The notes under the pieces: model-generated
Seen by the model: only the letters and a program-made list of their open reading frames with translations
The model's database searches: none
Told to the model about the DNA's origin: nothing
Part shown: one piece after another, positions 6,548-56,989 of the stretch
Layout of the letters: the number at the start of each line of letters is the position of its first letter
Position numbering within the stretch: position 1 is the first letter of the stretch
Program-made: the position numbers and the translations under genes
Origin: Bacteroidota bacterium
Lineage (GTDB): Bacteria; Bacteroidota; Bacteroidia; Flavobacteriales_F; PHOS-HE28
Length of the DNA stretch: 64,000 nt
Assembly (NCBI GenBank): GCA_018266475.1
Contig: JAFEAI010000244.1
Span: forward strand, 8,391 to 72,390
Direction: 5' to 3'

Positions 6548-6584
6548 CCCCGGGCTTCCGTTTTACTCCCACCGCAGCGTGACC

Positions 6585-12794: not shown

Positions 12795-12820
12795 GCCGTC
12801 TTTCGGTAGTTCCTTTGCAG

Positions 12821-35430: not shown

Positions 35431-35460
35431 GCTGGTGGCTCGTAGTGCCATCGTCGGCAG

Positions 35461-35480
35461 CCCGACGCCCGGCAACCAAC
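35461..35480. repeat. Single CAACCAACAACTG unit (reverse complement of CAGTTGTTGGTTG) next to hairpin CGTCGG-cagc-CCGACG in the convergent gap between ABC-F and rluD.
   Basis: Read directly at 35440-35480. Confidence 0.5.
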
Positions 35481-35496
35481 AACTGGCATCTACAGC

Positions 35497-36603
35497 CTAC
35501 TTCAACTTGTTCGCCTCCTCGGCATCAAATGCCTCCCCCGGCTCGTCCAGCGGGCGGGCGCTGGTATAGGTGCGCCACCGGGCCAGCACCGCCTGCATGT
35601 CCGCAGGCAGCGGGCTTTCAAACCGCATGCGCTTCCCGGTCGCAGGGTGGTCGATGGCCAGCATGGCCGCATGCAGTGCCTGGCGCGGCAGCAGCCGGAA
35701 GCAATTCTCCACGAACTGCTTGTATTTGGAGAATACCGTGCCCTTCAGCACACGGTCGCCGCCATACGCCGCATCATTGAACAGCGGATGGCCGATGTGC
35801 CTCATGTGCGCACGGATCTGGTGCGTGCGGCCCGTTTCCAGCTTGCACTCCACCAAGGTGACATAGGTGAAGCGCTCCAGCACCTTCCAATGCGTGATGG
35901 CGGTTTTGCCCTGTTCCGGGTCGGCGGGCACCGACATCACGGTACGGTCCTTGGGGGAGCGGTCCAGGTTGCCTTCGATGGTGCCCTCATCGGCATCGAA
36001 ATCGCCCCACACCAGCGCCTGGTAGCGGCGGTCGTTGGTGCGCTCAAAGAACTGGCGTGCCAGGTGGGCCATGGCATCCTCGGTCTTGCCCACCACCATT
36101 ACGCCGCTGGTGTCCTTGTCCAGCCGGTGTACCAGGCCGGGCCTTGGCACGGGCTGGTTGGGCGCCGAGGGCAGCTTGCCGAAATGGAACAGCAAGGCGT
36201 TCACCAGCGTGCCCGTCCAATTGCCGTGGCCCGGGTGTACCACCAGGCCCGCCTGCTTGTTGAGCACCAGGATCTGGTCATCCTCGTACAGCACCTCCAG
36301 GGGAATGTCCTCCGGCAGCAGCTCCACCTCCCGCACGGGATGCGGCAGCACCAGGGTCACCACATCCTTGGGCTTCACCTTGTAGCTGGGCTTTTCGGCC
36401 CTGCCGTTCACCAGTACGTTGCCGTTGCGGGCCGCAGCGGCGATGCGTGAACGCGAGGCGCCGCCGATGTGGTCGAAGAGAAATTTATCCAGCCGCACCA
36501 AGCCTTGCCCGGGATCGGCCACCACGCGGTGATGCTCATAGAGCTCCTGCTCGTCGCCCGCATCCTCCGCGGCCCGGCCGGATGTTCCGTTGTCCTTCAC
36601 CAT
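35497..36603 (-). CDS. rluD: 23S rRNA pseudouridine synthase, RluA/RluD family.
   Basis: S4 domain (RLDKFLFDHIGGASRSRIAAAARNGNVLVNG); catalytic HRLDKDTSGVMVVGK. Confidence 0.85.
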   Translation of the reverse strand: MVKDNGTSGRAAEDAGDEQELYEHHRVVADPGQGLVRLDKFLFDHIGGASRSRIAAAARNGNVLVNGRAEKPSYKVKPKDVVTLVLPHPVREVELLPEDIPLEVLYEDDQILVLNKQAGLVVHPGHGNWTGTLVNALLFHFGKLPSAPNQPVPRPGLVHRLDKDTSGVMVVGKTEDAMAHLARQFFERTNDRRYQALVWGDFDADEGTIEGNLDRSPKDRTVMSVPADPEQGKTAITHWKVLERFTYVTLVECKLETGRTHQIRAHMRHIGHPLFNDAAYGGDRVLKGTVFSKYKQFVENCFRLLPRQALHAAMLAIDHPATGKRMRFESPLPADMQAVLARWRTYTSARPLDEPGEAFDAEEANKLK

Positions 36604-38873
36604 CCGTGCTGCACGATCAACCGGCTTTGCCCCAGGCCGGCCCCGTCCGGCGCCGAAATCCGCACGATGTATGCCCCACCGGCCACATCCTGCACGGACA
36701 TGCGGCCGGCATCAGCCCTCCACTCCCGCACCATGCGGCCCATGGGATCGATCAGTTGCACCTTGGCCCCTGCCGGCAGCGGTGCGTCCGGTTTCAGTTG
36801 GAAGGCATCACCTACCGGGTTTGGCCATACCGCGATCCCGCCCGCCGGGGCCTGCGTTTCCTCCACGCCCGCAAAGGGGTCCACGGCCGCCACCATCACC
36901 GGGCGGATCATCCACGAGGCCTGTTGCCCCGACTGTGACCAGCCTTGCCCAACACTGTAGAACATCTTGTTCTGGTTGTTCCGGTTTTTGTCCATGCCCA
37001 CGTTCATCTGCGTGTTGTTGGTCTGCACCCAGCCCACATAGAAGGTGCCGTTCACGGCGATGGTGCTGTCCAGCGGATATTCCATGAAGTTGTCCGGCCC
37101 CCACAACCGGTACTGGGGGCTGCTGAAGGAGATGTTCTGGAAGAGGACCACTTCCGGGTCGAGGCTCTTCCACACGGTGATCAGGAAGGATCCGTTGGGC
37201 GGGTAGTTGTTGGGGGGAGGATTGTACGTGAAGATGGGCGCGAAGTAGATGCGCAGGGCGCGAAGTGAATCCTGCCCTTGGGTATCGAAGCGATAGGCCT
37301 GCTTGCCCCCTGCCACGTTCAGGCTGTACCCGGCCTCGGCCGTGCCGTCGTCGTAGCTGTAGTAGTTGCTGATCTCCTGCCGGTAGCGCATGGTGTCGTT
37401 GTAGGCGCATACGTCCGGCGTGGCGTTGGTCCAGAACTTCACGTTCACAAAGGCTGCGCCGTTGCATCCCGAAAGGTCGTATACCAGCGGGTTGGCGCCG
37501 CTGTTCACCGGGTTCACGGTGTTGAAGTTGCTGTATGCGTTGTTGCTGATGTTGTTGCCGTAGCCGTTGCGCGCGGCGGTCCACCCGCAGCCGGAGTTCA
37601 CCTCGTAGCCCCAGGTGATGAACTTGTCCTGCGTGTCGTTGTTGCGCTGCACCACGTTCACCTGCTGGGCCATGTAGCTTGCCGGCGATGCGGTGAACTT
37701 GGCGAAGGGCACCGAGGTGAACGTTTGCAGCAGGCCGGCCTCCTGGTACACGAAGGCCACATCCTTCAGCACCGTGTCGGTGTAGGTGCGGTTGCGGTCC
37801 AGCCTGACATAATCCACGTGCCACTGGTCCACCATGCCGCCGAGGGTGGCGTCGTTGGTGAAGCGCATGCGGAAGCCGTCCTTGAGGAACTTGGGGTCCT
37901 TGATGGGCACCATCACCTGCCGGAAGCGGTCCGGCGGCGCGGTGCCGGGAAGGCCCCACACGCGGTACCATGCCTGCTCCTGGGCGGCCCAGAGGTCCAG
38001 GTGCAGGCTGTCCTCGGCATGGGCCAGCACGTCGCCGCTAAGGCCGATGGGCTCGCAGAAGAAGCTCAGGTACACGCTGTCACCCGGCGCATAGGCCAGG
38101 TTGATGGGCACTGAAGTGAGCTTGTCCGCAGGGCCGTTCGTGTTGGGGCTGAGCGGCAGGTAGGGGTAGCCCGTGCGGTCCATGCCGTCGAACGTGACCA
38201 CACCGATGGTGGGCGGCAATACCGGGAAGGTGTTGTTCACGTAGGCATCATCGTCCTCCCAGAGGATCCAGGGCCGCAGGCTGTTGTCCGGGTTGATATA
38301 GCTGCGCGGGTCCGGGTCCACGGTATACACCAGCATGGAATCCTGCCGGATATCGGGGTCCAGTGCCAAGGTGTCGGGCCCGCTTCCGCCCACGGTGTCG
38401 ATGATGGTATAGGGCGGCCACAGGTACCTGCTTTGCTCGGTGGGCGGGTAGTCGGCCAGGTTGCGCACCACCACCACCACCGCAGGATTGGGCACCTGCG
38501 TGATCGTGAGCTCGCCGTTGCTGGTGTCCACCGTGATGTGGTACGAGGTGTCCTGCAGAAAGGCCATGCCGGCCGTGCTGGTGCCGCCCACCACCAACCG
38601 GTAGATGGTTTCGGCGTAGTGAACGTTCGCATCCCCGCTCACGGCGTTCAGGTGGCGGGTGCGGTCCACCGAGAAATCGTCGATCACGGGCAGGGTTTGC
38701 CCCGCGTTCTGGTAGAGGAAGATCTCATTGGGTCCGCCAGCCTTTTCCAGTTTCGGCGGATTGTCCGGCCGGGGCACCATGCCCAGCGGGCTGATGATCT
38801 CCTGCGCGCGAAGCCCCGTGGCCAGCAACATGGCGGGAAGCAGCAGCGCACGGAGGATTCGGATGCTTGGCAT
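36597..38873 (-). CDS. Large T9SS-secreted protein of unknown function (Por C-terminal sorting domain).
   Basis: Signal peptide MPSIRILRALLLPAMLLATGLRAQE. C-terminal WPNPVGDAF...GAYIVRISAPDG...LIVQHGW matches the Por_Secre_tail pattern. 7-bp overlap with the rluD start. Confidence 0.7.
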   Translation of the reverse strand: MPSIRILRALLLPAMLLATGLRAQEIISPLGMVPRPDNPPKLEKAGGPNEIFLYQNAGQTLPVIDDFSVDRTRHLNAVSGDANVHYAETIYRLVVGGTSTAGMAFLQDTSYHITVDTSNGELTITQVPNPAVVVVVRNLADYPPTEQSRYLWPPYTIIDTVGGSGPDTLALDPDIRQDSMLVYTVDPDPRSYINPDNSLRPWILWEDDDAYVNNTFPVLPPTIGVVTFDGMDRTGYPYLPLSPNTNGPADKLTSVPINLAYAPGDSVYLSFFCEPIGLSGDVLAHAEDSLHLDLWAAQEQAWYRVWGLPGTAPPDRFRQVMVPIKDPKFLKDGFRMRFTNDATLGGMVDQWHVDYVRLDRNRTYTDTVLKDVAFVYQEAGLLQTFTSVPFAKFTASPASYMAQQVNVVQRNNDTQDKFITWGYEVNSGCGWTAARNGYGNNISNNAYSNFNTVNPVNSGANPLVYDLSGCNGAAFVNVKFWTNATPDVCAYNDTMRYRQEISNYYSYDDGTAEAGYSLNVAGGKQAYRFDTQGQDSLRALRIYFAPIFTYNPPPNNYPPNGSFLITVWKSLDPEVVLFQNISFSSPQYRLWGPDNFMEYPLDSTIAVNGTFYVGWVQTNNTQMNVGMDKNRNNQNKMFYSVGQGWSQSGQQASWMIRPVMVAAVDPFAGVEETQAPAGGIAVWPNPVGDAFQLKPDAPLPAGAKVQLIDPMGRMVREWRADAGRMSVQDVAGGAYIVRISAPDGAGLGQSRLIVQHGW

Positions 38874-38886
38874 GTGTCGGTTGTTG

Positions 38887-39720
38887 TCAGGGCGCGGTGA
38901 GGGTGCTGTCCATGGTGAGCCACACGTCCACCATGCCGCCGGGCCTGATCGTTTCCGCAGGCCCTGCTTGGGGGAACTGGCGCACCACGGTTGCCAACGC
39001 AGTATCGCAGCCGCTATTGCCGCAGCCCTTCACCTCCACCACCATGCCCAGGTTCAGCGAAGCCATGCCCAGCACAGCTTTCATTTCCGAGAAGCCCATT
39101 CCGCGCAGGTCGGGCACGGGCACGCCTTCGCCCCCTTCCCCCTGGCCCAGCACCAAGGTGATGGATTCCCCTTTGCGGATCCTGCTTTCCGCCGTTATCG
39201 GCTGCCCCTTGTACAACTGGGCCACCACGCAATCCAGGCAGGGATCGGGGCGGTATTCCAGCGCGGCCAGCTTCAGCCCCAGGATCTCCATCACGCTGAT
39301 CGCCTGGCGCTTGCTCAGGTTCACCAGGTCCGGCATGTTCAGCATTTTCGGCTGCGTGGCGTTCATCACCAAGTAGATGGTCCGGTCAGGCTTCACGTAC
39401 TGCCCCGCCTTCGGGTCCTGGTCCACCACGGTGCCCTTGGGCGCCTCATCGGTGTATACCGAATCGATCACCTCGGCCCGAAGGTCCAGTGCTTCCAGTG
39501 CTTGTGCGGCCGCATCAAAGTGCAGGGCCTTCAGCTCGGGCACTTCCACCTTTACATCATGGCGCGTATAGGCGCCCGCCCAAAGCCAGGCCGCCAAGAT
39601 CAGTGCTGCCGCCAGCACCAGCGGTCCCGCGATCAGGAAAAGGCGTCTTCCGGCCGTCATGCGCTGCCTGTGGCCATTGGGGCCGTTTTTTGGCAAGGCG
39701 CGAATATACTCCCCCGCCAT
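38887..39720 (-). CDS. PASTA-domain protein (N-terminal TM anchor, three PASTA-like repeats).
   Basis: Repeated ...VPDLxGM...A...L...GL... PASTA-like units. Alternative ATG start at 39660 (MTAGRRLFLIAG...). Confidence 0.65.
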   Translation of the reverse strand: MAGEYIRALPKNGPNGHRQRMTAGRRLFLIAGPLVLAAALILAAWLWAGAYTRHDVKVEVPELKALHFDAAAQALEALDLRAEVIDSVYTDEAPKGTVVDQDPKAGQYVKPDRTIYLVMNATQPKMLNMPDLVNLSKRQAISVMEILGLKLAALEYRPDPCLDCVVAQLYKGQPITAESRIRKGESITLVLGQGEGGEGVPVPDLRGMGFSEMKAVLGMASLNLGMVVEVKGCGNSGCDTALATVVRQFPQAGPAETIRPGGMVDVWLTMDSTLTAP

Positions 39721-39736
39721 CGGGCATCATCAACAG

Positions 39737-39965
39737 GACAGGGCTATAGCCTCTTAACACTGCGCCTGGCGGCGCATATCCAATACTTGTACGAACCACG
39801 GATCCACACGGATGGACACGGATCGCGAACCTCTCCGGGCATCGGGCTCAAAGTTGTGGCCCACTTCCCCCATCGCGCACTTATCCGTGTTTATCTGCGT
39901 CCATCCGTGGTTGGGAAATCGGAAAAATCGCGACCGCAGGGCGCGCAAGAGGCGATAGCCCTGTC
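39737..39965. repeat. 229-bp nested inverted-repeat element. Outer 19-bp IR GACAGGGCTATAGCCTCTT / AAGAGGCGATAGCCCTGTC (18/19). Inner arms 39796-39825 and 39881-39910 each carry two CACGGAT / ATCCGTG heptamers.
   Basis: Direct reading of both strands. Sits between the divergent PASTA gene and ddl. Confidence 0.5.
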
Positions 39966-40051
39966 AACAGGGTGCCGTTGGCACTTCCGGCGTGATCATT
40001 CCCGCAGTGCCCGCATCCCGCCAAACCTTTGGGCACATTCCTGCTCCCTCC

Positions 40052-41056
40052 ATGCCACTGCCCCTTGTCGCCATTTTCCGCGGCGGATATACCGGCGAGT
40101 CCGTCATCAGCCAAAAAAGCGCGCAGACCATGATGGACGCCATCGACACCTCCCGGTTCGATGCCGCTTTCGTTTCCGTAACCCCGGACGGCTGGGCCTG
40201 CCAGCGGGCCGATGGAGGCAATCTCCCGTTCGACCGCGGCCTCTTCACCGCCGACCGCGGCCACGGACCGGAACCCTTCGCCGCAGCACTGATCGCCATC
40301 CACGGCACCCCGGGCGAAGACGGCAAGCTACAGGGCTATTTGGACATGCTGGGCGTGCCCTACCAGACCGGCGGCGTGCTGAACATGGCCCTCACCATGA
40401 GCAAATACGGCACTACGGCCTTGCTCCGCCAGCTCGGCTTTCCCGTGGCCGCCTCCATCCGCGTACACCGCCACCAGCACGATGCCGCACAGCGCATCCT
40501 GGCGGAAGTGGGCCTGCCCTGCTTCGTGAAGCCGGACAACAGCGGCAGCAGCCTCGGCATCAGCAAGGTGAAAACCGGCGGGGAGCTTGGTCCCGCACTG
40601 GAAAAAGCATTCACGGAAGATACCTTGGTGATGTGCGAACGCGCCGTGAAAGGCCGCGAGCTCACCTGCGGCGTGATGGACCTGGGCGGAAAGACGCGCG
40701 CCCTGCCCGTGTGCGAGATCCGCACCACCCACGAGTTCTTCGACTATGAGGCCAAGTACCACGCCGCCGACACCCAGGAGCTTGTGCCCGCGCCCATTCC
40801 GGATGAGGTGGCCGCGGTGGTGCAGCAGCGTTCCGAGGCCATCTTCCAAGCCCTCAACTGCCATGGCCTGGTGCGCATAGACCACTTTTGGCTGGAAGGA
40901 CAAGGCGACGGCAAGGAGGTGGTCACCATTGAGGTAAACACGGTGCCGGGCTTCACGCCCGTGAGCATCTATCCGCGCATGCTGAAGGCCGCGGGAATGC
41001 CGGTGGAAGAGGCGGTGAACGGGTTGGTGGAGGGGATGGTTCAGCGGCAGGGTTGA
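40052..41056 (+). CDS. ddl: D-alanine--D-alanine ligase.
   Basis: ATP-grasp fold with CFVKPDNSGSSLGISKV and C-terminal NTVPGFTPVSIYPRM motifs. Start at the internal ATG giving MPLPLVAIFRGGYTGE. Confidence 0.9.
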   Translation: MPLPLVAIFRGGYTGESVISQKSAQTMMDAIDTSRFDAAFVSVTPDGWACQRADGGNLPFDRGLFTADRGHGPEPFAAALIAIHGTPGEDGKLQGYLDMLGVPYQTGGVLNMALTMSKYGTTALLRQLGFPVAASIRVHRHQHDAAQRILAEVGLPCFVKPDNSGSSLGISKVKTGGELGPALEKAFTEDTLVMCERAVKGRELTCGVMDLGGKTRALPVCEIRTTHEFFDYEAKYHAADTQELVPAPIPDEVAAVVQQRSEAIFQALNCHGLVRIDHFWLEGQGDGKEVVTIEVNTVPGFTPVSIYPRMLKAAGMPVEEAVNGLVEGMVQRQG

Positions 41057-41327
41057 CCACTGTGGGATGGCCCGGCCAGGCCGTGGCTGTTGCCACCTGT
41101 GTGCGGCAGGCCATCGGCATGCAATCCCCCTATTTCAACTGCGGACAGATGTACAGATGCCCTATCCGTTCAATCGGCCAATTGGGCATGGCCAACCGGT
41201 TCATAGATTTGGCTCCTGCACGCTTTGGCCACGCGGAACCTCCCGGCCATTCACATTGGAGAGGGGTATTGCAGCCAACCCCATGGATTGAGTTCCCTCC
41301 GGCATCGCTTTGAATTTGAACTCGAAA

Positions 41328-42800
41328 ATGAGCAACGAAGCATCCGGCCGCCAGGAGGCACCTGACCATCAAGCTCCGCGTCTCAACCCGTGGTGGCTCG
41401 TCCCGCTGTTCCTTGGGGCCCTGGCCGAGGCCATGCTTTTCTCGCACCTTATTGCCTGCGCCAACCCCGAGCTGCGGCCCGGCATTCTGGCCACTGTGGG
41501 CGGGGACACCCAATCCTATCTGCTGCCCATGGACCACCTGGTCGATGAAGGGCAGTATTACACGCTCAACATGCAGGGCGAAAAGACCTTGGCAGGCCGC
41601 ATGCCGTATTATGCCGTTCCATATCTCCTGCTTCGTTTGGCGGGCCTGCCGGCCGCCGATATCATGGCGGTGCTCCAGGCAGCCCTTTTCGCACTTGCCC
41701 TTTGGGCGCTCGCGGACCTGCTGGTGCGGGAAACACGATCCCGTTGGTGCGGCTATCTGTTCATGCTCGCAGGCGGGCTTTCGGGGCATTTTACGTCCTA
41801 CCTGCCCGCCATACTTCCGGATGCCATTGGCGCATCGCTTGCCGCATTGGCCATGCACCGGTTCTGGCTCACCGAAAAGCGCGACCGTGCAAGCGACCGC
41901 TGGTTGCTCGGCGGCATTTTGGCCGCCCTGATCCTGGTGAAACCCTATTTCGCCCCATTGATCGCACTGATCCCGCTCCGTTGGCTGTACAAAAGCCGCA
42001 ACCTCCGGCAAACTGCGGCCCGGTCGGTCATCCTGGCAACCCCGTTATTGATCATGCTTGCGCCATGGTGGATCCGCAACGCCCTGGTCATGGGCCGCTT
42101 TTTTCCGTTCCAGCAGGACATGTACGCCGGCTATGGCTACTCAAGCACCGAGTTGCGCAGCCGCAGCTTTGCGCAGGCGGCCGGTGAGGATGGCGTGGTC
42201 TGGTGGGATCCATATAGCATGGCCAGCTGCATGCGGCTGGACCCACAACCGCCTTCACGCTATACCTGGCCGGAATACTTCAAGGACGGAACCGTCGCGG
42301 GTTTCAATCAAGTGGTGGCCGCCTACAAGACGTTCCAGGCAGCCCCTACTCCCGAACATGCCGCTACCGCAGAAGCCTTGATGGACTCCGTGCAGAATGC
42401 CTACATACAGCAATATCCCCTGCATTACTATGTTACCAACCACTTCAATGCGCTGCCCCGGCTATTGTTCCATAGCGGATCCGCCAACCTTCCGGTGCAT
42501 GCGTCAAATCCTTGCTACGGCTCTTGGCAGTTCCTGCTCAAGCTAGCCGCCAGCCTGGCCTACTGGGCTTCATTGGCCGGTCTGCTGCTGGGGATTGCAT
42601 GGGCCTTTGCAGACCGCGCCGCCAATCTGTGGTTGTGGCTGGTGGTGCCCTTGTATCTGGCGCTCTTCTTCTCCTTAGTAGTGGTGGCCCCGGAATGGCG
42701 GTATTTCTCGGGCGCCTTCCTGATCGACCTTTGGTTGTTGTTCCGCATCGCACCTCCAGCCCTGCTGAAGGTCAAGGCGCGGCTTGCAAAAAGGACCTGA
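41328..42800 (+). CDS. Polytopic membrane protein resembling GT-C glycosyltransferases (ArnT/PMT/GT39-83-like), uncertain.
   Basis: ~12 predicted TM segments with loops between early helices, 490 aa. Adjacent to the ArnC-like/WecE-like/WecD-like genes. Family not verified. Confidence 0.4.
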   Translation: MSNEASGRQEAPDHQAPRLNPWWLVPLFLGALAEAMLFSHLIACANPELRPGILATVGGDTQSYLLPMDHLVDEGQYYTLNMQGEKTLAGRMPYYAVPYLLLRLAGLPAADIMAVLQAALFALALWALADLLVRETRSRWCGYLFMLAGGLSGHFTSYLPAILPDAIGASLAALAMHRFWLTEKRDRASDRWLLGGILAALILVKPYFAPLIALIPLRWLYKSRNLRQTAARSVILATPLLIMLAPWWIRNALVMGRFFPFQQDMYAGYGYSSTELRSRSFAQAAGEDGVVWWDPYSMASCMRLDPQPPSRYTWPEYFKDGTVAGFNQVVAAYKTFQAAPTPEHAATAEALMDSVQNAYIQQYPLHYYVTNHFNALPRLLFHSGSANLPVHASNPCYGSWQFLLKLAASLAYWASLAGLLLGIAWAFADRAANLWLWLVVPLYLALFFSLVVVAPEWRYFSGAFLIDLWLLFRIAPPALLKVKARLAKRT

Positions 42801-43905
42801 CCGCACCGGTTATTTGTTCCACTTGGCCGGTTTGCAAGGCTGCGAACAGGGGCAGCCGCAACAGGCGGTCGCTGTACAGGTCGCTCATGGGCAGGTCGCG
42901 TCCATCGTGCTTGTGTGCGTAAAACGGTGACTTGTGCAGGGATTGGTAATGGAATACCGCCATGATACCGCGCTCCCGCAGGTATTGCACCAGCGCGGTA
43001 CGTTCCTCCAGCGACCTGCAAAGAATGTGGAAGAGGTGGCCATTGCAGGTGGCATAGCCTGGCAGGAACGGGCCGCCCAATCGGCCTTGGCGGAACAGGT
43101 CCACCAAGCCTTCGGCATAAGCGTTCCAATTGGCGATCCGCCGTGCCTGTATCGCATCGATCCCCTCCAACTGGGCAAGCAGGAAGGCGGCATTGATCTC
43201 CGACGGCAGGTAGGAGGAACCGACGTCCACCCAATTGTACTTGGCCACTTCACCGCGCCAGAAGGCCGCCCTGTTGGTTCCCTTCTCCCAGATCACCTCC
43301 GCCCGCGCAGCCATGGAGGGGTCATTCACCACCAAGGCTCCACCCTCACCGCATTGCACGTTCTTGGTTTCATGGAATGAGAAGGTGCCCAAGTGGCCGA
43401 TCCCGCCCAGCGGCCTTCCCTTATAGCGCGATTCAATGGCTTGTGCCGCATCCTCCACCACCTTCAACCCATGCGCACCGGCAATGGCCATGATCTTGTC
43501 CATGTCGCAGGCCACTCCGGCATAATGTACCGCCACAATGGCCTTGGTGCGCGGTGTGATCAGCTCCTCCACACCTTCTTCATCCATCCCCGGATGGTCC
43601 TTCCGGCTATCGACGAAAATGATCTTGGCCCCGCGCAGCACAAACGCATTTGCCGTGCTTACGAACGTATAGGAGGGCATGATCACTTCATCCCCCGGCT
43701 GTATGTCCAGCAGCAATGCACACATCTCCAAGGCATCGGTGCAGGAGGTGGTGAGCAGCACGCGCTGAAAACCGTACCTCTTCTCCATCCAGGCCTGGCA
43801 CCGTTGCGTGAACTGGCCGTTGCCGGAAAGCTTGTTGCGCTGCACCGCTTCATTTACGTAGCGATACTCATTGCCGGTGAGGTAGGGAACATTGAAGTCG
43901 ATCAT
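42772..43905 (-). CDS. DegT/DnrJ/EryC1/StrS-family sugar aminotransferase (WecE/ArnB-like).
   Basis: MIDFNVPYLTGNEYRYVNEAV N-terminus; PLP-Lys region FSFHETKNVQCGEGGALVVND. Confidence 0.85.
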   Translation of the reverse strand: MIDFNVPYLTGNEYRYVNEAVQRNKLSGNGQFTQRCQAWMEKRYGFQRVLLTTSCTDALEMCALLLDIQPGDEVIMPSYTFVSTANAFVLRGAKIIFVDSRKDHPGMDEEGVEELITPRTKAIVAVHYAGVACDMDKIMAIAGAHGLKVVEDAAQAIESRYKGRPLGGIGHLGTFSFHETKNVQCGEGGALVVNDPSMAARAEVIWEKGTNRAAFWRGEVAKYNWVDVGSSYLPSEINAAFLLAQLEGIDAIQARRIANWNAYAEGLVDLFRQGRLGGPFLPGYATCNGHLFHILCRSLEERTALVQYLRERGIMAVFHYQSLHKSPFYAHKHDGRDLPMSDLYSDRLLRLPLFAALQTGQVEQITGAVRSFLQAAP

Positions 43906-44072
43906 GGAAGTTGCGATGGTCACTTTGCACCGTGCCCGGGGAACCCATCCCCGGCGAAGATCGGAACTGCCACGCCAACACATGGCAGAACGTCGGGCGA
44001 AACCGACAAGCGAAGGTGGCGGATGGCCCTTTCGGCCCACTTCACCGCGCCCGGAGCATGGAAGGGCCCCAT

Positions 44073-44804
44073 CTACCTGCCGTTGGGAAAAAGATGGTAT
44101 ACATCAATTACCTCAATGATGTGAAAACCCTTCTTTCCATAGAAACGCATCGCATCCACATTCTCAGCCTGGGTAGGCACCTGTAATGTCCACACTTCCC
44201 GGCCAGCAAGGTATTGGAACACCTGGCCAAGCAGCTTGCCCCCAATGCCCTCACCCTGATGCCCCGGGGATACTGAAAGCAAGCCGATCCTGCCCACGCC
44301 GTCATTCACTGAAACCGTGATGAGGCCGACCAATGCCCCATCCATCTTGTACACGAACACCTCATCCGCCAATTCACGCTTCACCGACCGCGCCAGCCAG
44401 GTTTCATACATCGCCCGGTATTGCCCATCGCTGATCCCCGGGTCAACCTTGAAGCGTGAGTGCGCGCCACAGATATATGCCAGCTCCATGAGTTCCGTGA
44501 TCCGGGCTTCACCTGTGTACGGCGCAATGCTCGGGTCATGTGCCAGGGGGGCTGGCGGCACCTTCCGTTCAAACAGCACCGTGGAAGGCATCTTACGCCC
44601 ACCATGTCGTTCCAACATCTTCGGGTCCACCAATTCGCCCCCCGGGGCGAACAAATAGATCATGCCATAGCCGTCTTTCACGGCATTGCGCAATCCTGCG
44701 CCCAACCACGCCCGGTCGTGTCCCCCTGGCAGGCGGATGCGGCCTGTCCGGCGACCAAAATGTTCACTGTCCCAAGCCAGATGTTCCACTACGTACATGG
44801 TCAT
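44073..44804 (-). CDS. GNAT-fold acetyltransferase, candidate dTDP-4-amino-4,6-dideoxy-sugar N-acetyltransferase (WecD-like).
   Basis: GNAT motif region GLLSVSPGHQGEGIGGKLLGQ...AENVDAMRFYGKKGF; 243 aa; flanked by the WecE-like and ArnC-like genes. Confidence 0.5.
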   Translation of the reverse strand: MTMYVVEHLAWDSEHFGRRTGRIRLPGGHDRAWLGAGLRNAVKDGYGMIYLFAPGGELVDPKMLERHGGRKMPSTVLFERKVPPAPLAHDPSIAPYTGEARITELMELAYICGAHSRFKVDPGISDGQYRAMYETWLARSVKRELADEVFVYKMDGALVGLITVSVNDGVGRIGLLSVSPGHQGEGIGGKLLGQVFQYLAGREVWTLQVPTQAENVDAMRFYGKKGFHIIEVIDVYHLFPNGR

Positions 44805-45721
44805 TCATTCAGGACCTTGTCCACAATGTACACGGGCCGGCTCTTCACCTTTTCGAATACCTTGCCCAAGTACAACCCCAATACCCCAAGAATGAAAATG
44901 GCCAACCCGCTAAAAAACCAGATGGAAAGAATGAGGCTTGCGTAACCAAGTACAAGTATCTCCCCGCGCAAGTACTTGACCAGGAAGTATCCTCCCATTA
45001 TGAAAGCCGCGGCGGAAATGAACAAGCCCAACCGTACGGTTAGGCGCAATGGCTTATCCGAAAAGGCTATGATATTATTGAAAGCGAGGTCCAACATTTT
45101 TGACCACGTATAAGACGACCCCCCTTCCGGGCGGGCAGCATGCTCCACATCCACCGTGGCCCGCTTGAACCCCACCCATTGGCTCATGGTAGGAAAAAAG
45201 CGGATCTGATCTCCCATGGATAGAATGGCCTGGATCACCCGTTGGTGGTAGATTCCGAAGTTGGCAACGCTGGGATCTTGCGTGCTATCGGTCAAATAGC
45301 TGAACAGGCTGTAAAACACCCTTGAACTTATCCGCTTAAACCAGCCGTCCATTCTTACCGAGCGGCGTGCCAACACAAGGTCATTTCCTTCCAACGCCTT
45401 GGCCAATAGCCCCGGTATCTCTTCCGGCTTGTCTTGAAGATCGCAGTCCATGACCACCACCCAAGCTCCCCTTGCCGCCGCCAGACCTGCCGTGATGGCA
45501 TAATGCTGGCCGAAGTTTCTGCTCAACTTAATTCCCTTTACACGTGGATGTTCCCCACAGATCCGTTCAATTGCCGCCCAAGAACCGTCGGGGCTTCCGT
45601 CCTCCACCAGGATAACCTCATATTCATCGGTTACCAACCTCACACTTCGATTGATCCGCGCCACAAGCTCCGTAACCAAGTTTTCCGCCCGGTATACCGG
45701 GCTCACGACAGATAAGTACAT
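44801..45721 (-). CDS. Polyprenol-phosphate glycosyltransferase (GT2, ArnC/GtrB-like) with C-terminal TM helices.
   Basis: MYLSVVSPVYRAENLV...EVILVEDGSPDGS...DCDLQD and two C-terminal TM segments. Confidence 0.8.
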   Translation of the reverse strand: MYLSVVSPVYRAENLVTELVARINRSVRLVTDEYEVILVEDGSPDGSWAAIERICGEHPRVKGIKLSRNFGQHYAITAGLAAARGAWVVVMDCDLQDKPEEIPGLLAKALEGNDLVLARRSVRMDGWFKRISSRVFYSLFSYLTDSTQDPSVANFGIYHQRVIQAILSMGDQIRFFPTMSQWVGFKRATVDVEHAARPEGGSSYTWSKMLDLAFNNIIAFSDKPLRLTVRLGLFISAAAFIMGGYFLVKYLRGEILVLGYASLILSIWFFSGLAIFILGVLGLYLGKVFEKVKSRPVYIVDKVLNE

Positions 45722-46174
45722 CGAATCAACAGAGTTGGGTGCGTCCTGCGCAGGTGATGACCGTTGTGCTGTTCAGTTACGTGCATGCAGGACAACTGGA
45801 CGGGGAGCGCAATCGCGATTACGAGCCGTCGCCTTCATTTTCCGGGCTGATCGAACATGCTTCACCGTGCCAAACTAAGCCGCTGAACGGAAGTTCCAAC
45901 CAAGCCCCCATGGAATGGCTCCGACAGATTGCCCAATTTCTTCTCCACCGCAACTGCGAGCTGATCCAGGAACCGCCCCCGCCCCACTCGTTCGTGAAGA
46001 TCGGCCACGGGCTTCCATGCCACTCGGCCAAGGGCTGTACACGCTTTGGGGCATGATCGGAAATTACCAACGGGAGCCCCGGAACGAATGGCCTGCCATA
46101 GCAAGCCGCTAGGCATGCCGAACGACTTGTACTTGGCGGATTCGATTCATCTTGCTTGTGGCCTGCAAAGTAAG

Positions 46175-46750
46175 TCACCGCTCCGCCAAAAACCGCACCA
46201 GCTTCCACACCGCATGCCCCCGGTGGCTGATGGCATTCTTATGCACGTTGTCCAGCTCCGCAAAGGTGAGGTCGCTCATTTCCGGAAGAAAAACGGGATC
46301 ATAGCCGAATCCGTTTGTGCCACGAAGCTCCGTGGTGATGGTCCCGCGCACTTCACCCTCGAATACATGCTCGCCACCGCTATCCACATAGGCGATCACC
46401 GTGCGGAAACGGGCACGCCGGTCCGCCGTGCCCTCCAATTCGTGCAGCAGCTTGGCCATGTTGGCCCGGTCATTCTTTTGCGGACCCGCGTAAAATGCCG
46501 TATCCACGCCCGGCGCACCGTTCAGTGCCTGCACCTCCAGTCCCGAATCATCGGCGATGCACGGCAGGCCGGTGCGCGCAAAGGCGAAGCGCGCCTTCTG
46601 CAGGGCGTTCTCCGCAAAGGTGTGGCCGGTTTCGGGAAGGTCGGTGGGAAGGCCCGCGCCCTGCAAGGTGAGCAGCTCCATGCCGGAGGGCAGCAACTTC
46701 CGCAGCTCGGCGAGCTTGCCAGGATTGCCGGTGCAAAGAAGAAGGCGCAT
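46175..46750 (-). CDS. rdgB: Non-canonical purine NTP pyrophosphatase (RdgB/HAM1).
   Basis: MRLLLCTGNPGKLAELRKLL, FGYDPVF, typical Ham1 layout. Confidence 0.85.
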   Translation of the reverse strand: MRLLLCTGNPGKLAELRKLLPSGMELLTLQGAGLPTDLPETGHTFAENALQKARFAFARTGLPCIADDSGLEVQALNGAPGVDTAFYAGPQKNDRANMAKLLHELEGTADRRARFRTVIAYVDSGGEHVFEGEVRGTITTELRGTNGFGYDPVFLPEMSDLTFAELDNVHKNAISHRGHAVWKLVRFLAER

Positions 46751-47110
46751 GCGGCAAAGATGAGGGCCGCATCCGATGCATCCGCTTTTATGCGCCTTCC
46801 CATACGTCGCACACCGCATCTCCTGCCTTGGCCGCAGGTCATGTGAGTTGCGAAGACCCTCAATTCATAAAATGATGCAACGCAGATTCCGCTTGCCAAC
46901 ATCCAAGGCCGCCATGTACATTTGCGGGGCCGTTGCCTCCAGGTATTGAAAATAGAGAGGCGCGTGCAACCCGTGAGGAACTCCTGCAACCAGCTGTGCC
47001 GCATGTCGAAGGCCGACTCCATCAAGGGTTTGGCGGACGCCTCAGGCACCGTGTTGCGGTAGCGCGCCAGCCAGCAAGGCCGCCCCTCCACCGTAACATC
47101 CCAAAACTCC

Positions 47111-48889
47111 ATGCCGAACAGCGCGCGGAAGAGGATACTGTATATAGCCGAAGGGCAACTGCCCGCAAGCGACCCGTTCAATAAGCAGATCCAAGCTGCC
47201 GGCGGGGTGAACGACTTCTTCTTCATTTCCATGGGAGACCGCTCCATCACAGGGCCGGGAGCGGATGCAGGGCCTGCCGGCGCCGGCCCTTCGCGCCGTG
47301 CTTCACTCCAGCTCCCGCCCAACGCCGCCCAAGGAAAAGTGGATGCCATGCTGCACCGCCAATTGCGGCTGTGGGGAGCCCCTTTTGACCTGGTACACCT
47401 GCAGGACCTCACGCCGGCCACACTGGCCATTGCCACAAGCAAGCACTTGCAAGGCATTCCTAAGGTGCTTTCGGTTCATGGCGCACCAGCAGGCCCGGTG
47501 ATGCCCATGTTGCCTCAGCACGCTGGGTCCTTCAACCTGGAACCCTGGCTGAAGGCGGCCGGGATCGTTCACGTGCTTGCCGCATCGCCTCAACTAAAGG
47601 AACTTCTGATCGCCAAATTCGGGGTTCCGGCGGAAAAACTTCGCACCATGCCCGGAACCGCCACCGGGGACCAGGCCGGCTGGTTGCCGGGAATCTATCT
47701 TGAAACCTTGATGACCAGCGGAAAACTCCCCGGGGAAAGGCCGTACCGCCAATGCACCCATTGCGTACTGGACACCAACGATGACAAGTTCATCCAGTTT
47801 GATGAGGCCGGAGTGTGTACCTACTGTCACTGGTACCAACGTGAGGACCCGCGCAACATGTTCAAGGGAAAGGACCGGGAAAAGATGCTTGCCGACCTGG
47901 TGGCCCGCATCAAACGGGAACGCAAGCACCCCAAATACGACTGCATTGCCGGCGTGAGCGGCGGCGTGGACAGTTCCTACACTGCGCTGAAACTGAAGGA
48001 GCTCGGCCTTACCCCGTTGCTGGTACACTTGGACAACGGCTACAATTCGGAGGTCTCCAACAGCAACGTGCAACGCATGGTGGAGCACCTCGGGTTCGAC
48101 CTGCACAACCATGCCCCCGACTGGGAAGAATTCAAGAACATCCAACTGGCTTTCCTGCGCGCCTCGGTGATGGACATTGAACTGGTGACCGACCATGCCA
48201 TGGTGGCCTACCTCTTCAACCTTGCGGCCAAGCTCGACATCAAGTTCATCATCTCCGGGCACAACTTCGCTACCGAAGGCATCCTTCCCGAAGGCTGGTA
48301 CCAGGACAAAATGGACCTGCTGAACATCCGCGCCATTGCCCGCCGCTTCGGTGGTGTCCGCTTGCACCACCTGCCCCGCCTCAGCTACTGGCGGCGCCAA
48401 TACCTCTATCTTTTCAAGGGCTTCGAAGGGGTGAAGTTGCTGAACTATCTGGATTACGACACCGTGAAGGCCAAAGAGGAGATCATCGCCAAATTGGGTT
48501 GGAAGGACTACGGTGCCAAGCATACCGAATCCATCTTCACCCGGTTCTACCAGAACTACATCCTGCCCACCAAGTTCCACATCGACAAACGCAAGGCGCA
48601 CCTGGCCACGCTGATCTGCTCGGGCACCATGGACCGCCAAACGGCCCTCAACGAACTGGCCAAGCCGCCATACACACCGGAGGAATTCAAGGCCGACCTC
48701 GAATTTGTGACCGGAAAGCTCGGGATCACGGTGGACGAGTTCAACGCCATGATGAAGGCGCCCATCCGTGACCACCTGGAGTTCCCCTCGTACATCACGC
48801 GGCACTACCGCTGGGAAAGGGAATGGGCGCCGCGCCTGAGGCCGCTGACCCGCCTGGTAAAGCGCGTGGTGATCAGGCAGCAGGCATAA
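47111..48889 (+). CDS. N-acetyl-sugar amidotransferase (WbpG/WbuX-type PP-loop ATPase; domain from ~47711) fused in-frame to an N-terminal GT4-N-like domain (47111-47710).
   Basis: Amidotransferase part: zinc-ribbon CTHCVLDTNDDKFIQFDEAGVCTYCHWY and PP-loop GVSGGVDSSY. N-terminal part: KRILYIAEGQL..., SVHGAPAG..., VHVLAASPQLKELLIAKFGVPAEKL resemble the N-terminal half of GT1/GT4 enzymes without the C-terminal EX7E half. An internal ATG at 47711 could be the true amidotransferase start. Confidence 0.65.
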   Translation: MPNSARKRILYIAEGQLPASDPFNKQIQAAGGVNDFFFISMGDRSITGPGADAGPAGAGPSRRASLQLPPNAAQGKVDAMLHRQLRLWGAPFDLVHLQDLTPATLAIATSKHLQGIPKVLSVHGAPAGPVMPMLPQHAGSFNLEPWLKAAGIVHVLAASPQLKELLIAKFGVPAEKLRTMPGTATGDQAGWLPGIYLETLMTSGKLPGERPYRQCTHCVLDTNDDKFIQFDEAGVCTYCHWYQREDPRNMFKGKDREKMLADLVARIKRERKHPKYDCIAGVSGGVDSSYTALKLKELGLTPLLVHLDNGYNSEVSNSNVQRMVEHLGFDLHNHAPDWEEFKNIQLAFLRASVMDIELVTDHAMVAYLFNLAAKLDIKFIISGHNFATEGILPEGWYQDKMDLLNIRAIARRFGGVRLHHLPRLSYWRRQYLYLFKGFEGVKLLNYLDYDTVKAKEEIIAKLGWKDYGAKHTESIFTRFYQNYILPTKFHIDKRKAHLATLICSGTMDRQTALNELAKPPYTPEEFKADLEFVTGKLGITVDEFNAMMKAPIRDHLEFPSYITRHYRWEREWAPRLRPLTRLVKRVVIRQQA

Positions 48890-48939
48890 CCGGTTCCAGG
48901 CCTTTGGAGCCTATCGCGCCAAATGGGCGCGGCATCCAC

Positions 48940-49079
48940 TATTGAGTCGGCACAAAATGATTGACGATTCGACCTTGTGAAATTTCCTTGATGATCTGGC
49001 GAGGGGCTTCGGCTCCGCTCAGCCCAGTGTATCTGATTACTTTGCAGACAACCGTCAACTATTCAAGGCCGACTCAATA
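48940..49079. repeat. Intergenic IR element: 12-bp IR TATTGAGTCGGC / GCCGACTCAATA flanking a 16-nt core CTTCGGCTCCGCTCAG (49007-49022) shared with 1169-1191 and 19849-19871. Followed by GNRA hairpin ATGCGCC-gcaa-GGCGCAT (49199-49216).
   Basis: Direct reading; in the 393-bp gap upstream of the FkbM gene. Confidence 0.4.
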
Positions 49080-49282
49080 TCCACAACCGCAGATGCCCCC
49101 CGGTGCCTGCCGGAGGAACGCAGATGGCCTGGCTGAAAAACCGGGATGAAGCACTTTTCCTTGATCCGTATGGATCCGTGGTTCAAGTCCGTTTGCGAAT
49201 GCGCCGCAAGGCGCATGCATAAAACCCGATTGCCCTGACCTGGTTTTACTGCCACGCCTGGTGGCGAGGTAACTTTGCCCGG

Positions 49283-50176
49283 ATGGCCACCTCCCCCGCC
49301 CGGTCCGCCGCCCGCAGCTTGTACGCGGCCTTGCCCTTCAAGCAGCCCTTGTTCCAATTGGTCCGCCGCCTGGTCCCGCCGTTGCCGGAACGCCTCTACC
49401 GCCACCTCCACTTCAAAGGCGTGATCACCGTGGACATCTCTCCTGCGGAGCGCTTCCGCATCCGCCACCACGGCTATATGATCGAGAACGAGCTGTTCTG
49501 GCGGGGGCTTTCGGGCTGGGAAAAGATCTCCATGGAACTGTGGATCCGTCTTTGCCGCCGGTCAAAGGTAATCCTGGACATCGGCGCAAACACCGGCGTG
49601 TACGCCTTGGCCGCTAAGGCCGTAAACCCCGGCGCGGAGGTAATTGCCGTGGAACCCGTGGCCCGGATCTACGACAAGCTGGTCGACAACATCGGGCTCA
49701 ACGAAGGCACCGTGAAGGCCGTACATGCCGCCGCCACCAGCCACACCGGCACGGTGGTCCTGTATGACCAGCCCCAAAGCGAACACGTGCTCTCGGTTTC
49801 GCTGAACCCCGAATGGAACAAGGAAAGCCCGGCGCTAAGGCCCGTGGAAGTTCCCGCGTACACCGTGGCCGACCTCTTGGCCAAGCACGGCAACACCTTC
49901 GTGGACCTGCTGAAGATCGATGTGGAAACGCACGAGGCCGAGGTGCTGCGGGGGTTCCGCGAGATCCTGCTGCGGGACAAGCCCGCCATGCTCATCGAAC
50001 TGCTTAACGGGCAGGTGGCTGCCGAGGTGGGCACCCTGCTGGAGGGCCTGGGCTATGAATACTACAACATTGACGATGTGTCCTGGCCGCCTGCACGGGC
50101 CAATGTACTGGCCCAAAGCGGGCATTTCAACTTCCTCGTGTGCCAGCCCGCAACCGCGCGGGCCATCGGCCTGTGA
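49283..50176 (+). CDS. FkbM-family SAM-dependent methyltransferase.
   Basis: ILDIGANTGVYAL motif and downstream LKIDVETHE motif typical of FkbM methyltransferases. Confidence 0.75.
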   Translation: MATSPARSAARSLYAALPFKQPLFQLVRRLVPPLPERLYRHLHFKGVITVDISPAERFRIRHHGYMIENELFWRGLSGWEKISMELWIRLCRRSKVILDIGANTGVYALAAKAVNPGAEVIAVEPVARIYDKLVDNIGLNEGTVKAVHAAATSHTGTVVLYDQPQSEHVLSVSLNPEWNKESPALRPVEVPAYTVADLLAKHGNTFVDLLKIDVETHEAEVLRGFREILLRDKPAMLIELLNGQVAAEVGTLLEGLGYEYYNIDDVSWPPARANVLAQSGHFNFLVCQPATARAIGL

Positions 50177-50197
50177 CCAGTTGCCGCATTCCGCTCC

Positions 50198-51289
50198 ATG
50201 CGCCTGGAAAATCGGACCATCCTCATTACCTCCAACGAACCCTGGGGCGATGTGTGGTATTCCAAACACAACTATGCGAACGAGCTCGCGAAGGACAACG
50301 ATGTGATCTTCATTGACCCACCCGGGCGCTGGCGCCCCGCAGCGTTGGCCGGTGCGGCGCCAGTGCTCCTGCCCATCTCACCGCAGCTCCATGTACTCCG
50401 GTACCGCAATGTGCTGCCGGCGTTGAACATGGCCTTGTTCCGGCTGAACAACCGCATTGTATCCAGGGCCATACGCATGCTACTGCGTAGCACGGGCCGC
50501 AAAGAAAACCTGCTGCTCGCATTCGACCCCTTCCGGCTTGTTGACCCCGCGCAGCTGGACGCGGAGCGCTCCGCGTTCTTCGCTGTGGATGCCCACGTAA
50601 TGACCACCCTGGGCGAGCGGTGCATCTATCGCAACGTGGACAAGATCATCAACATCTCCCCCGCACTCAACGAACGGTACCTACCCTTTGGCAAACCCAT
50701 GCTCACCCTGGACCATGCCATACCCGCAGACCAGTTCGGCACCAAGCCCAAACCTACGGGCCATGCGGGCCACGGCCTGTTTGTGGGCAACCTGGACGCA
50801 CGCCTGGACCTTCCCTTCATCCGGCGCATGGCGGAAACGTTCCCCAACGTGCCCTTTGTCTTTATCGGCCCCTATGCGCTGCATGGCCGGCCGGAGGCCG
50901 ACCTCCTCTTCCGGAGCGGTGCTTTCAGGAACGTACACCACCACGATTCCGTTCCCTTTAAGGAACTGGGCGGGTACATCGCCGATGCCAGCTTCTGCCT
51001 GGCACCCTTGAATGTCCAGGACCCGCGCAATGCCATCTCGCACCACAAGATCTTCCACTACCTGGCGTTGGGAAAGCCCGTCTTCAGCCCTGTTTTCTCA
51101 GCATACCTCCCCATCGCCGATCTGCTGTACATGAACAACGATGCGGATGCGCTGCTGGCGCAGTTGGCGGAATTCCTGCGGCAGGGGGAAGCACCGGAGC
51201 TTACCGCCAAGCGCATTTCCTTTGCGCGCACCCGGACGTACGACCATAACCTAGCGGCGATCGCCAACTTCCTGCTCGCGCCGAAATGA
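50198..51289 (+). CDS. Glycosyltransferase, TuaH-like (GT1/GT4 fold), paralog 1.
   Basis: N-terminus ILITSNEPWGDVWYSKHNYANELAK. ~45% identical by eye to the downstream paralog. Confidence 0.5.
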   Translation: MRLENRTILITSNEPWGDVWYSKHNYANELAKDNDVIFIDPPGRWRPAALAGAAPVLLPISPQLHVLRYRNVLPALNMALFRLNNRIVSRAIRMLLRSTGRKENLLLAFDPFRLVDPAQLDAERSAFFAVDAHVMTTLGERCIYRNVDKIINISPALNERYLPFGKPMLTLDHAIPADQFGTKPKPTGHAGHGLFVGNLDARLDLPFIRRMAETFPNVPFVFIGPYALHGRPEADLLFRSGAFRNVHHHDSVPFKELGGYIADASFCLAPLNVQDPRNAISHHKIFHYLALGKPVFSPVFSAYLPIADLLYMNNDADALLAQLAEFLRQGEAPELTAKRISFARTRTYDHNLAAIANFLLAPK

Positions 51290-51353
51290 GGCACTCCGAC
51301 CCATCCATGCGCCGCACCAGTGCATGGCATTGCCCCCCGAACTGCCCCCGCGC

Positions 51354-52445: not shown

Positions 52446-52562
52446 CCATGCGGCTATCTTTGGCACTGGCCGTTTCCTCGGGTGCAGGATGGGTCCGCAA
52501 CCACCATTCCCTTCCACGCCAGGCCCGTAAAACTGCGTTCAAATAGGCCACCGCCCAAGCTG

Positions 52563-53699: not shown

Positions 53700-53851
53700 C
53701 CTGCTTTGGCAATGACCCGCACGGCAATCAACCGGCGCACAGCCGGACAACACGCCAGTCTGGCCCGCGCCCTTGGCATACACTGGGCGGCGGCACACCC
53801 CCGCCCAGCAGCCTGGACCTGCCTATCCATGCACACGCAACCACCAAGCGC

Positions 53852-54775: not shown

Positions 54776-54785
54776 CCCTGTCACC

Positions 54786-56986: not shown

Positions 56987-56989
56987 CGC

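Follow-up and report, generated by a model that had tools for sequence, protein, structure and literature searches.

Within a 64,000-nt stretch of a Bacteroidota genome (GenBank assembly GCA_018266475.1, contig JAFEAI010000244.1, forward-strand positions 8,391 to 72,390; this whole stretch is termed the window below), four long and intact open reading frames (ORFs) span positions 41328..45721. By family, their products are a polytopic membrane protein related to GT-C glycosyltransferases, a WecE-type aminotransferase dependent on pyridoxal phosphate (PLP), a WecD-like GNAT acetyltransferase and a family 2 glycosyltransferase (GT2) of the GtrB/ArnC type. It is very likely that together they follow a logic in which an aminosugar is loaded onto undecaprenyl phosphate (Und-P) and then used by a GT-C enzyme. 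A preliminary description of the locus had identified the same four genes as GT-C-like, WecE-like, WecD-like GNAT and ArnC-like GT2; its coordinates are exact and all four family calls stand.

The membrane protein gene (41328..42800, + strand, 490 aa) converges on a minus-strand operon, in which the GT2 gene (44801..45721, 306 aa) is first, followed by those for the GNAT (44073..44804, 243 aa) and the aminotransferase (42772..43905, 377 aa). The 3′ ends of the two converging genes share 29 nts, and the GT2 stop codon overlaps the GNAT start codon in the sequence ATGA. The GC content of the GT2 and GNAT genes, 0.52 and 0.57 respectively, compares with 0.62 for the whole window. The four-gene arrangement also occurs in public contigs of the same species, and an identical copy of the membrane protein has been deposited from assemblies labelled as uncultured 'Bacteroidetes bacterium'. 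A scan of 41000..47200 for promoters and terminators gave sites no more frequently than shuffled sequence did.

Gene products of the module

The aminotransferase belongs to the DegT family (Pfam E 1.2e-87) and passes both NCBIfam models for WecE, the equivalog PRK11706 with 557 bits (cut-off 375) and TIGR02379 with 506 bits (cut-off 435). Its alignment with E. coli WecE (4PIW; E 2.9e-126, ~60% identity by eye) runs from residue 1 and retains the SFHETKN motif containing the PLP lysine. (In some public gene calls the start is placed at 43983 and the protein is 403 aa long; since the alignment with WecE begins at MIDFN, 43905 is the better choice.) It is far under the cut-offs of the ArnB, PseC and DesI models, its score against ArnB being 220 bits with a cut-off of 631. 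The reaction predicted from this is the conversion of dTDP-4-keto-6-deoxy-D-glucose to a dTDP-4-amino-4,6-dideoxyhexose and, given the match to WecE, the product is most likely the galacto form, 4-amino-4,6-dideoxygalactose (Fuc4N).

For the adjacent GNAT the best NCBIfam match is WecD (PRK10975, E 2.1e-22), in an alignment that takes in positions 6-223 of the 232 in the model. The AlphaFold2 model (pLDDT 83) has as its top match in the PDB the structure of WecD, 2FS5 (E 1.5e-12, TM-scores 0.75/0.81, 236 columns); the next matches have TM-scores of 0.64 or less. The two-domain architecture of WecD, an N-terminal domain followed by the GNAT core, is present. Two other lineages (loci L015 and L022, described below) also have a GNAT gene next to those for a GT2 and a WecE-type aminotransferase; both GNAT proteins have WecD as their best match, the former being 37% identical to the GNAT of the window and the latter having no detectable pairwise similarity to it. 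The protein is WecD-like by modelled fold and by context, and not a strict WecD equivalog. Its assignment to the WecD type of sugar acetyltransferase, as proposed in the preliminary description, is borne out by the full-length match to the WecD hidden Markov model and by the fold. It is predicted to be an acetyl-CoA-dependent N-acetyltransferase yielding dTDP-Fuc4NAc, the N-acetylated form of the sugar nucleotide.

The GT2 protein aligns with GtrB (5EKP) over residues 3-301, the transmembrane (TM) region included, with E 2.5e-53, and with ArnC (9HWJ) with E 7.6e-47. It has the motif EDGSPD and, at the DxD region, DCDLQD, and its C-terminal part contains TM helices at 225-243 and 263-281. Judged by its sequence it is a full-length polyprenyl-phosphate glycosyltransferase of the GtrB/ArnC type, and in this setting it is the predicted Und-P-Fuc4NAc synthase.

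For the membrane protein, assignment depended on relatives, profile comparison, fold and residue conservation taken together. A word-indexed search found eight close relatives, and repeating it with a profile of 100 sequences added no close relative and one weak PMT_2-positive match. An exhaustive profile search reached 1,511 cluster representatives at E<1e-3, with 174 at E<1e-30. Among 100 family members scanned singly against Pfam, 40 matched PMT_2 (best E 1.3e-10), 11 Glyco_transf_22, 3 PMT and 3 GT87. When the family was compared by hhalign with a protein that itself passes the PMT_2 threshold (L013, 3084-4424), the probability was 99.3% (E 4e-20) over 380 columns, with the motifs G-D-T-x-x-Y, K-P, P-W-x-x-R-N and E-x-R-Y in register. 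NCBI gives the name 'glycosyltransferase family 39 protein' to a homologue ~38-40% identical to the protein, and some relatives have a weak precomputed match to Pfam DUF8201. A search of PDB sequences with the family profile found nothing relevant. A scan of metagenomes with an eight-sequence profile found four loci; a scan of viral contigs for relatives found none, so that phage-borne seroconversion is unsupported at that sensitivity.

Nine hydrophobic segments can be counted in the sequence, and the AlphaFold2 model (pLDDT 82, pTM 0.80) has ~10 TM helices, the first at 21-45 and followed by a structured loop, 46-95. All 15 of the best 15 Foldseek matches in the PDB are GT-C-fold proteins; ArnT (5f15, E 5.6e-3) is first, and PglB, STT3, Pmt and oligosaccharyltransferases are represented. 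Near-invariant residues are G59, D60 and Y64, which lie in the loop that follows TM1, and R91, P206, W247, R250, N251, K405, E456 and R458. At least 90% of 100-135 family members retain D60, which is part of a G-D-x-x-S-Y motif, and in the hhalign comparison this motif is aligned to the GDT motif of the PMT_2 protein. The sequence relationships and the model identify the protein as a divergent GT-C related to PMT_2. This answers a question raised in the preliminary description, namely whether 41328..42800 would classify as a GT39/GT83-type enzyme or as a transporter: it is a GT-C, from a family with homology to PMT_2 and with structural matches to ArnT, PglB, STT3 and Pmt, and it is not a transporter. 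It is not a member of the ArnT family (GT83), since none of the ArnT, PMT and PMT_2 models matches the protein itself and the predicted structure ends in TM helices with no ArnT-type C-terminal periplasmic domain. From its relationships it is predicted to be a periplasmic transferase using an Und-P-linked sugar; that this sugar is carried on a polyprenyl phosphate is deduced only from the GtrB/ArnC-type GT2 consistently encoded next to the protein.

Exchange of the sugar cassette between related loci

The module was compared with 14 distinct related loci (identified here by L numbers). In nine of these, L005, L008, L009, L011, L013, L019, L021, L022 and L023, a homologue of the membrane protein, from 57% down to about 26-27% identical to that of the window, has as neighbours a GtrB-like GT2 and a DegT aminotransferase; with L020, where these neighbours are fragmented, the nine span Bacteroidota and Acidobacteriota. 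The synteny that the preliminary description had suggested looking for does exist, and a polyprenyl-phosphate-sugar synthase and a GT-C are encoded together in the window and in at least nine related loci. L022 has the architecture of the window, with the membrane protein gene (27-28% identity of its product) converging on those for GT2, GNAT and WecE. The aminotransferases of the window, L008, L009 and L011 pass the WecE equivalog model, and those of L013, L019, L021, L022 and L023 are WecE-type by similarity.

What differs between loci is the gene that occupies the amine-modifying slot. A WecD-like GNAT fills it in the window and L022, a NeuD/VioB-type acetyltransferase of the left-handed β-helix (LbH) kind together with a WbqC-family protein in L008, a hexapeptide-repeat (LbH) protein with WbqC in L019 and L021, and a formyltransferase with WbqC in L009. 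In L011 it is an ArnA-N-like formyltransferase (PRK06988 1.2e-48, ArnA 7.5e-43), in L023 an S-adenosylmethionine-dependent methyltransferase (7986..8753), and in L005 an FdtA-hexapeptide fusion accompanied by a non-WecE DegT protein. L021 has in addition a PhyH dioxygenase and a methyltransferase (7854..9496), and these, like the methyltransferase of L023, imply further modifications of the aminosugar. The WbqC-family proteins (PF08889), which have no NCBIfam match, are encoded with WecE at L008 6808..7503, L009 11392..12102, L019 3160..3858 and L021 11313..12002. In three of these four loci (L008, L009 and L019) the GT2 is of a distinct subtype, and WbqC probably helps define a second type of donor sugar.

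GT2 similarity tracks cassette type and not the phylogeny of the membrane protein. The GT2 of the window is 56% identical to that of L023 and 44% identical to that of L022, while the respective membrane proteins are 29% and 28% identical. For L009 the relationship is reversed, with 27% identity for GT2 and 57% for the membrane protein. The GT2 proteins of L008, L009 and L019, all from loci with WbqC, are 44-67% identical to one another. Such tracking is expected if the GT2 is a donor-specific enzyme of the cassette and the membrane protein is the retained enzyme on the acceptor side.

The window and L009 share a ddl...rdgB neighbourhood, which allows comparison at the nucleotide level. Identity is 76-79% in the flanks and 68% across the 3′ half of the membrane protein gene and wecE, and is absent across GNAT and GT2, a pattern from which it follows that the cassette was replaced between conserved flanks. 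L009 has a 62-aa rdgB fragment (6691..6981) upstream of the membrane protein gene and beside an Acyl_transf_3 gene, and an intact rdgB (12324..12902) closes the cassette. Set against window positions 35000..47500, the fragment and the intact gene are the footprint of cassette exchange by recombination. No such rdgB remnant or repeat flanking the cassette was found when sought in the window.

In L020, from a metagenome-assembled genome of Flavobacteriales, wecE and the GT2 gene beside the membrane protein homologue are present only as fragments in different frames (11445..14162), which are either pseudogenes or assembly errors.

Proposed pathway, probable acceptor and alternatives

Starting from these gene families, folds and syntenies, and reasoning from homology and synteny as to donor identity, lipid carrier, topology of transfer and acceptor, the following series of steps can be proposed. 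The starting compound, dTDP-4-keto-6-deoxyglucose, would be provided by rmlA and rmlB encoded outside the window. The WecE orthologue would aminate it at C4 to give dTDP-Fuc4N, and the WecD-like GNAT would acetylate the amine to give dTDP-Fuc4NAc. At the cytoplasmic face of the membrane the GT2 would move Fuc4NAc onto Und-P, and the resulting Und-P-Fuc4NAc would be flipped by a flippase encoded elsewhere. In the periplasm it would be used by the membrane protein, whose D60, situated in the first external loop, probably serves as catalytic acid/base. Fuc4NAc would thereby be added as a side branch or cap to a lipid-linked, O-antigen-like polysaccharide. This reading as a whole, in which Und-P-Fuc4NAc, once made, serves as periplasmic donor for the decoration of an O-antigen-like polysaccharide in the style of Gtr, Arn or Xanthomonas wxc systems, is held to be probable, with distinctly less assurance than its core of an Und-P-linked aminosugar and a GT-C.

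The acceptor proposed comes from the position of the module in or beside polysaccharide clusters at four related loci and from a neighbouring gene at a fifth. L019 belongs to a cultured organism, Paraflavisolibacter sp. H34 / Huijunlia imazamoxiresistens (GCA_037132455.1), and here the module is inside a single co-directional cluster that also encodes an RmlA-like protein, Gmd, Wzm, a Wzt having the Wzt_C domain and further glycosyltransferases. In L023 Wzm and Wzt are encoded directly after the membrane protein; in L022 a GT2/GT4 cluster continues directly from the module; in L013 it is within a cluster of GT4, GT2, PMT_2 and methyltransferase genes; and in L005 the cassette is adjoined by hldD, a gene for the heptose of the lipopolysaccharide (LPS) core. 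(The last, a short-chain dehydrogenase/reductase (SDR) gene labelled 'Epimerase', was considered as a possible dehydratase of the module and rejected, as it scores 372 bits as hldD, with a cut-off of 275; an SDR gene at the corresponding position is also present in L008, L011 and L021.) In none of the loci examined is the module accompanied by a gene for a polysaccharide deacetylase or for a deacylase of the ArnD/NaxD/LgmC type; the sugar would therefore keep its N-acyl group and be neutral, which counts against a charge-altering modification of lipid A like that of Arn. Serotype-like exchange of the cassette fits a surface polysaccharide. The acceptor is most likely an O-antigen-like polysaccharide, a candidate omitted from the preliminary description, in which lipid A, LPS core and protein were listed.

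In the window, a polysaccharide cluster occupies 47111..58246, with genes for a GT4-WbuX fusion, an FkbM methyltransferase, several GT4 and GT2 proteins and a Wzx-like flippase; by analogy with the other loci it may build the acceptor polymer. Upstream of the membrane protein gene are ddl and two further genes, one for a PASTA protein and one whose product has a sorting domain of the type IX secretion system (T9SS), which marks the host as a member of the Bacteroidota. The fusion gene (47111..48889, + strand, 592 aa) encodes a GT4-like N-terminal segment and a WbuX-type N-acetyl sugar amidotransferase (TIGR03573, E 2.7e-81, above cut-off), an indication that the main polysaccharide cluster involves an acetamidino sugar. 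At 58243..59703 (− strand) there is an ORF of 486 aa with ~10 hydrophobic segments, an unusually low GC content of 0.505 (0.623 for the window) and no match in Pfam or NCBIfam. It contains the motifs 'NGDTISY' and 'IKPY', similar to those of the membrane protein family, and its hhalign probability against that family is only 19%; its product may be either another GT-C-like enzyme or the Wzy that belongs to the adjacent cluster. Two very long ORFs, 2..6547 (+, 2181 aa) and 6429..10535 (+, 1368 aa), are at the start of the window.

Several observations weigh against the pathway as drawn. No gene for a flippase, whether GtrA, SMR or another small protein with several TM segments, could be found in the window, where no ORF of 90-200 aa has three or more hydrophobic segments. 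(No MATE-type flippase is linked to the module either; the small ORFs on either side of it lack hydrophobic character and match nothing in Pfam, and the GtrA family is in none of the related loci listed.) Neither rmlA nor rmlB was found when sought in the window, so these genes and the flippase must be encoded elsewhere. The module is split from the polysaccharide cluster 1.4 kb away by rdgB (46175/46244..46819, − strand; Ham1, E 6e-65), just as the preliminary description had said. In L007 the membrane protein is without a cassette on its 9-kb contig. Conversely, L015 has an aminotransferase-GNAT-GT2 operon (6857..9709) without an adjacent membrane protein homologue in the 16.7 kb examined. 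(The aminotransferase and GT2 of L015 are respectively 51% and 35% identical to those of the window; its contig looks proteobacterial, with EAL, GST, OpuAC, BolA and glutaredoxin neighbours.) The best NCBIfam matches of the GT2 are sub-cut-off (PgfS with 217 bits, cut-off 500; ArnC with 175, cut-off 529), and the GNAT is under the equivalog cut-offs for WecD (PRK10975 with 80 bits, cut-off 219; TIGR02382 with 50, cut-off 195). The membrane protein itself has no Pfam match, its Foldseek E-values are 5.6e-3 or weaker, and enzyme activity and glycan structure are known for no member of its family.

Four alternatives can be weighed against these data. The first is that two pathways are intermingled, with WecE and the GNAT feeding dTDP-Fuc4NAc to cytoplasmic glycosyltransferases of the Wzx-dependent cluster, and with the GT2 and the membrane protein moving an ordinary hexose, e.g. 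glucose. In the synthesis of enterobacterial common antigen (ECA), WecE and WecD normally supply the cytoplasmic transferase WecF, and the usual substrates of GtrB-family enzymes are UDP-glucose or UDP-N-acetylglucosamine; moreover a large glycosyltransferase cluster is close at hand. The arrangement is nevertheless unlikely to be of this kind, as the GT2 varies with the sugar cassette in a manner decoupled from the phylogeny of the membrane protein, the GT2 and GNAT are translationally coupled, and in L015 aminotransferase, GNAT and GT2 form a compact operon in an unrelated setting without a surrounding polysaccharide cluster.

The second is an Arn-like modification of lipid A or the inner core, the membrane protein being an analogue of ArnT that places the aminosugar on a lipid A phosphate. 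The Arn system (ArnB, ArnA, ArnC, ArnD, ArnE/F and ArnT, with UDP-4-amino-4-deoxy-L-arabinose (UDP-Ara4N) as donor) does have the same series of an aminotransferase, N-acylation, loading of Und-P by an ArnC-type GT2 and periplasmic transfer by a GT-C, and to that extent the Arn logic of the preliminary description stands. ArnT is the single best Foldseek match of the membrane protein, L011 has the ArnA-N-like formyltransferase, and hldD is beside the module in L005, the locus where this was tested. The analogy breaks down, however, in that the module is without genes for a deformylase or other deacylase and for a flippase, and its membrane protein is not of the GT83/ArnT family, matching no ArnT model and lacking, in the predicted structure, the C-terminal periplasmic domain typical of ArnT. 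The sugar donor would be a dTDP-6-deoxyhexose made by a WecE and not by an ArnB, and as a neutral sugar its product would bring no charge benefit. While Arn places L-Ara4N on lipid A, the genomic context here points to O-polysaccharide: the cassette is hypervariable in the manner of serotype loci and is embedded in O-polysaccharide clusters with Wzm/Wzt. This alternative is, on balance, decidedly unlikely.

In the third, the membrane protein acts in a PMT- or PglB-like manner on periplasmic or secreted proteins, T9SS cargo for instance. It draws on the PMT_2 and PMT matches of family members, on the presence of oligosaccharyltransferases and Pmt among the fold matches, and on genes for T9SS-tailed proteins near the module of the window and beside that of L022. 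PMT_2, though, also covers GT-C enzymes directed to lipids and glycans, the family recurs within O-polysaccharide clusters with Wzm/Wzt and, in the comparison of the window with L009, the T9SS neighbours belong to the conserved flanks and not to the cassette. The probability of protein glycosylation is accordingly rated as very low. For the acceptor taken as a separate question, it is unlikely that it would be either lipid A/inner core or a secreted (T9SS) protein in place of O-polysaccharide.

Lastly, that the membrane protein is not a glycosyltransferase but a polymerase, ligase or other syntenic membrane protein, as its lack of a Pfam match and the modest Foldseek values might be taken to indicate, is most improbable in view of the extended hhalign alignment with its loop-1 GDT motif, the 40 in 100 relatives matching PMT_2 and the near-invariant Asp of the first external loop and Arg/Lys residues.

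Known systems and significance

Of systems described elsewhere, region 3 of the Xanthomonas campestris wxc locus is the nearest functional precedent for the module. It encodes the aminotransferase WxcK, the GT2 WxcL, WxcM and two membrane proteins, the small WxcN and the large and variable WxcO, and in wxcK and wxcN mutants the N-acetylfucosamine branches are lost while the rhamnan backbone of the O-antigen is kept (PMC4878081; PMC13133917). Common to that locus and the module is the clustering of tailoring genes for a dTDP-6-deoxy-aminosugar with genes for a GT2 and membrane proteins. The module differs in having a C4 (WecE) aminotransferase with a WecD-like GNAT, and in having no WxcN/GtrA-like gene; the sugar of the Xanthomonas wxc system is the 3-acetamido isomer. 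The FdtA-acetyltransferase fusion of L005 presumably resembles WxcM.

With Gtr systems (GtrA, GtrB and Gtr*), and with the three-component pentofuranose system of Citrobacter youngae involving GT136 (PMC11127046), the module has in common a polyprenyl-phosphate sugar synthase paired with a GT-C for periplasmic modification of a polysaccharide after its polymerisation, and it is GtrB 5EKP that its GT2 most resembles. Unlike Gtr systems it carries the synthesis genes for its own tailored aminodeoxy sugar donor, is chromosomal and without a linked flippase gene, and employs a GT-C of a different, uncharacterised family. The WecE orthologue and the acetyltransferase of WecD fold are as in the Fuc4NAc branch of ECA synthesis (WecE, WecD and WecF), but where in that case cytoplasmic WecF acts on lipid II, the module has a polyprenyl-phosphate GT2 and a GT-C instead. 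A further difference from the known systems is its interchangeable N-modifier slot. No direct precedent for a system of Und-P-Fuc4NAc and a GT-C, or for the function of WbqC, was found in the literature. The module is a divergent example of the well-known three-component strategy and does not involve a new mechanism.

Were the acceptor to be lipid A/inner core or a T9SS protein after all, this would be the first Bacteroidota system to attach there a neutral N-acyl-4-amino-4,6-dideoxyhexose from an Und-P donor, and it would do so with a GT-C family having no characterised member and with an N-substituent (acetyl, formyl or methyl) swapped between strains. For the preferred reading, with O-antigen-like polysaccharide as acceptor, the consequence is that a membrane protein family of ~1,500 cluster representatives, only some of which have even a Pfam DUF, gains a testable hypothesis of function, that of a GT-C using Und-P-linked N-modified 4-amino-4,6-dideoxyhexoses. 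To our knowledge, the described Und-P-monosaccharide donors for such decoration are glucose, galactose, N-acetylglucosamine, L-Ara4N, galactosamine, galacturonic acid and pentofuranoses, a list that N-modified 4-amino-4,6-dideoxyhexoses would, if the reading is true, extend. Exchangeable cassettes of this sort are also parts for glycoengineering. Retention of one GT-C with exchange of the donor cassette could account for serotype-like diversity in environmental Bacteroidota and Acidobacteriota.

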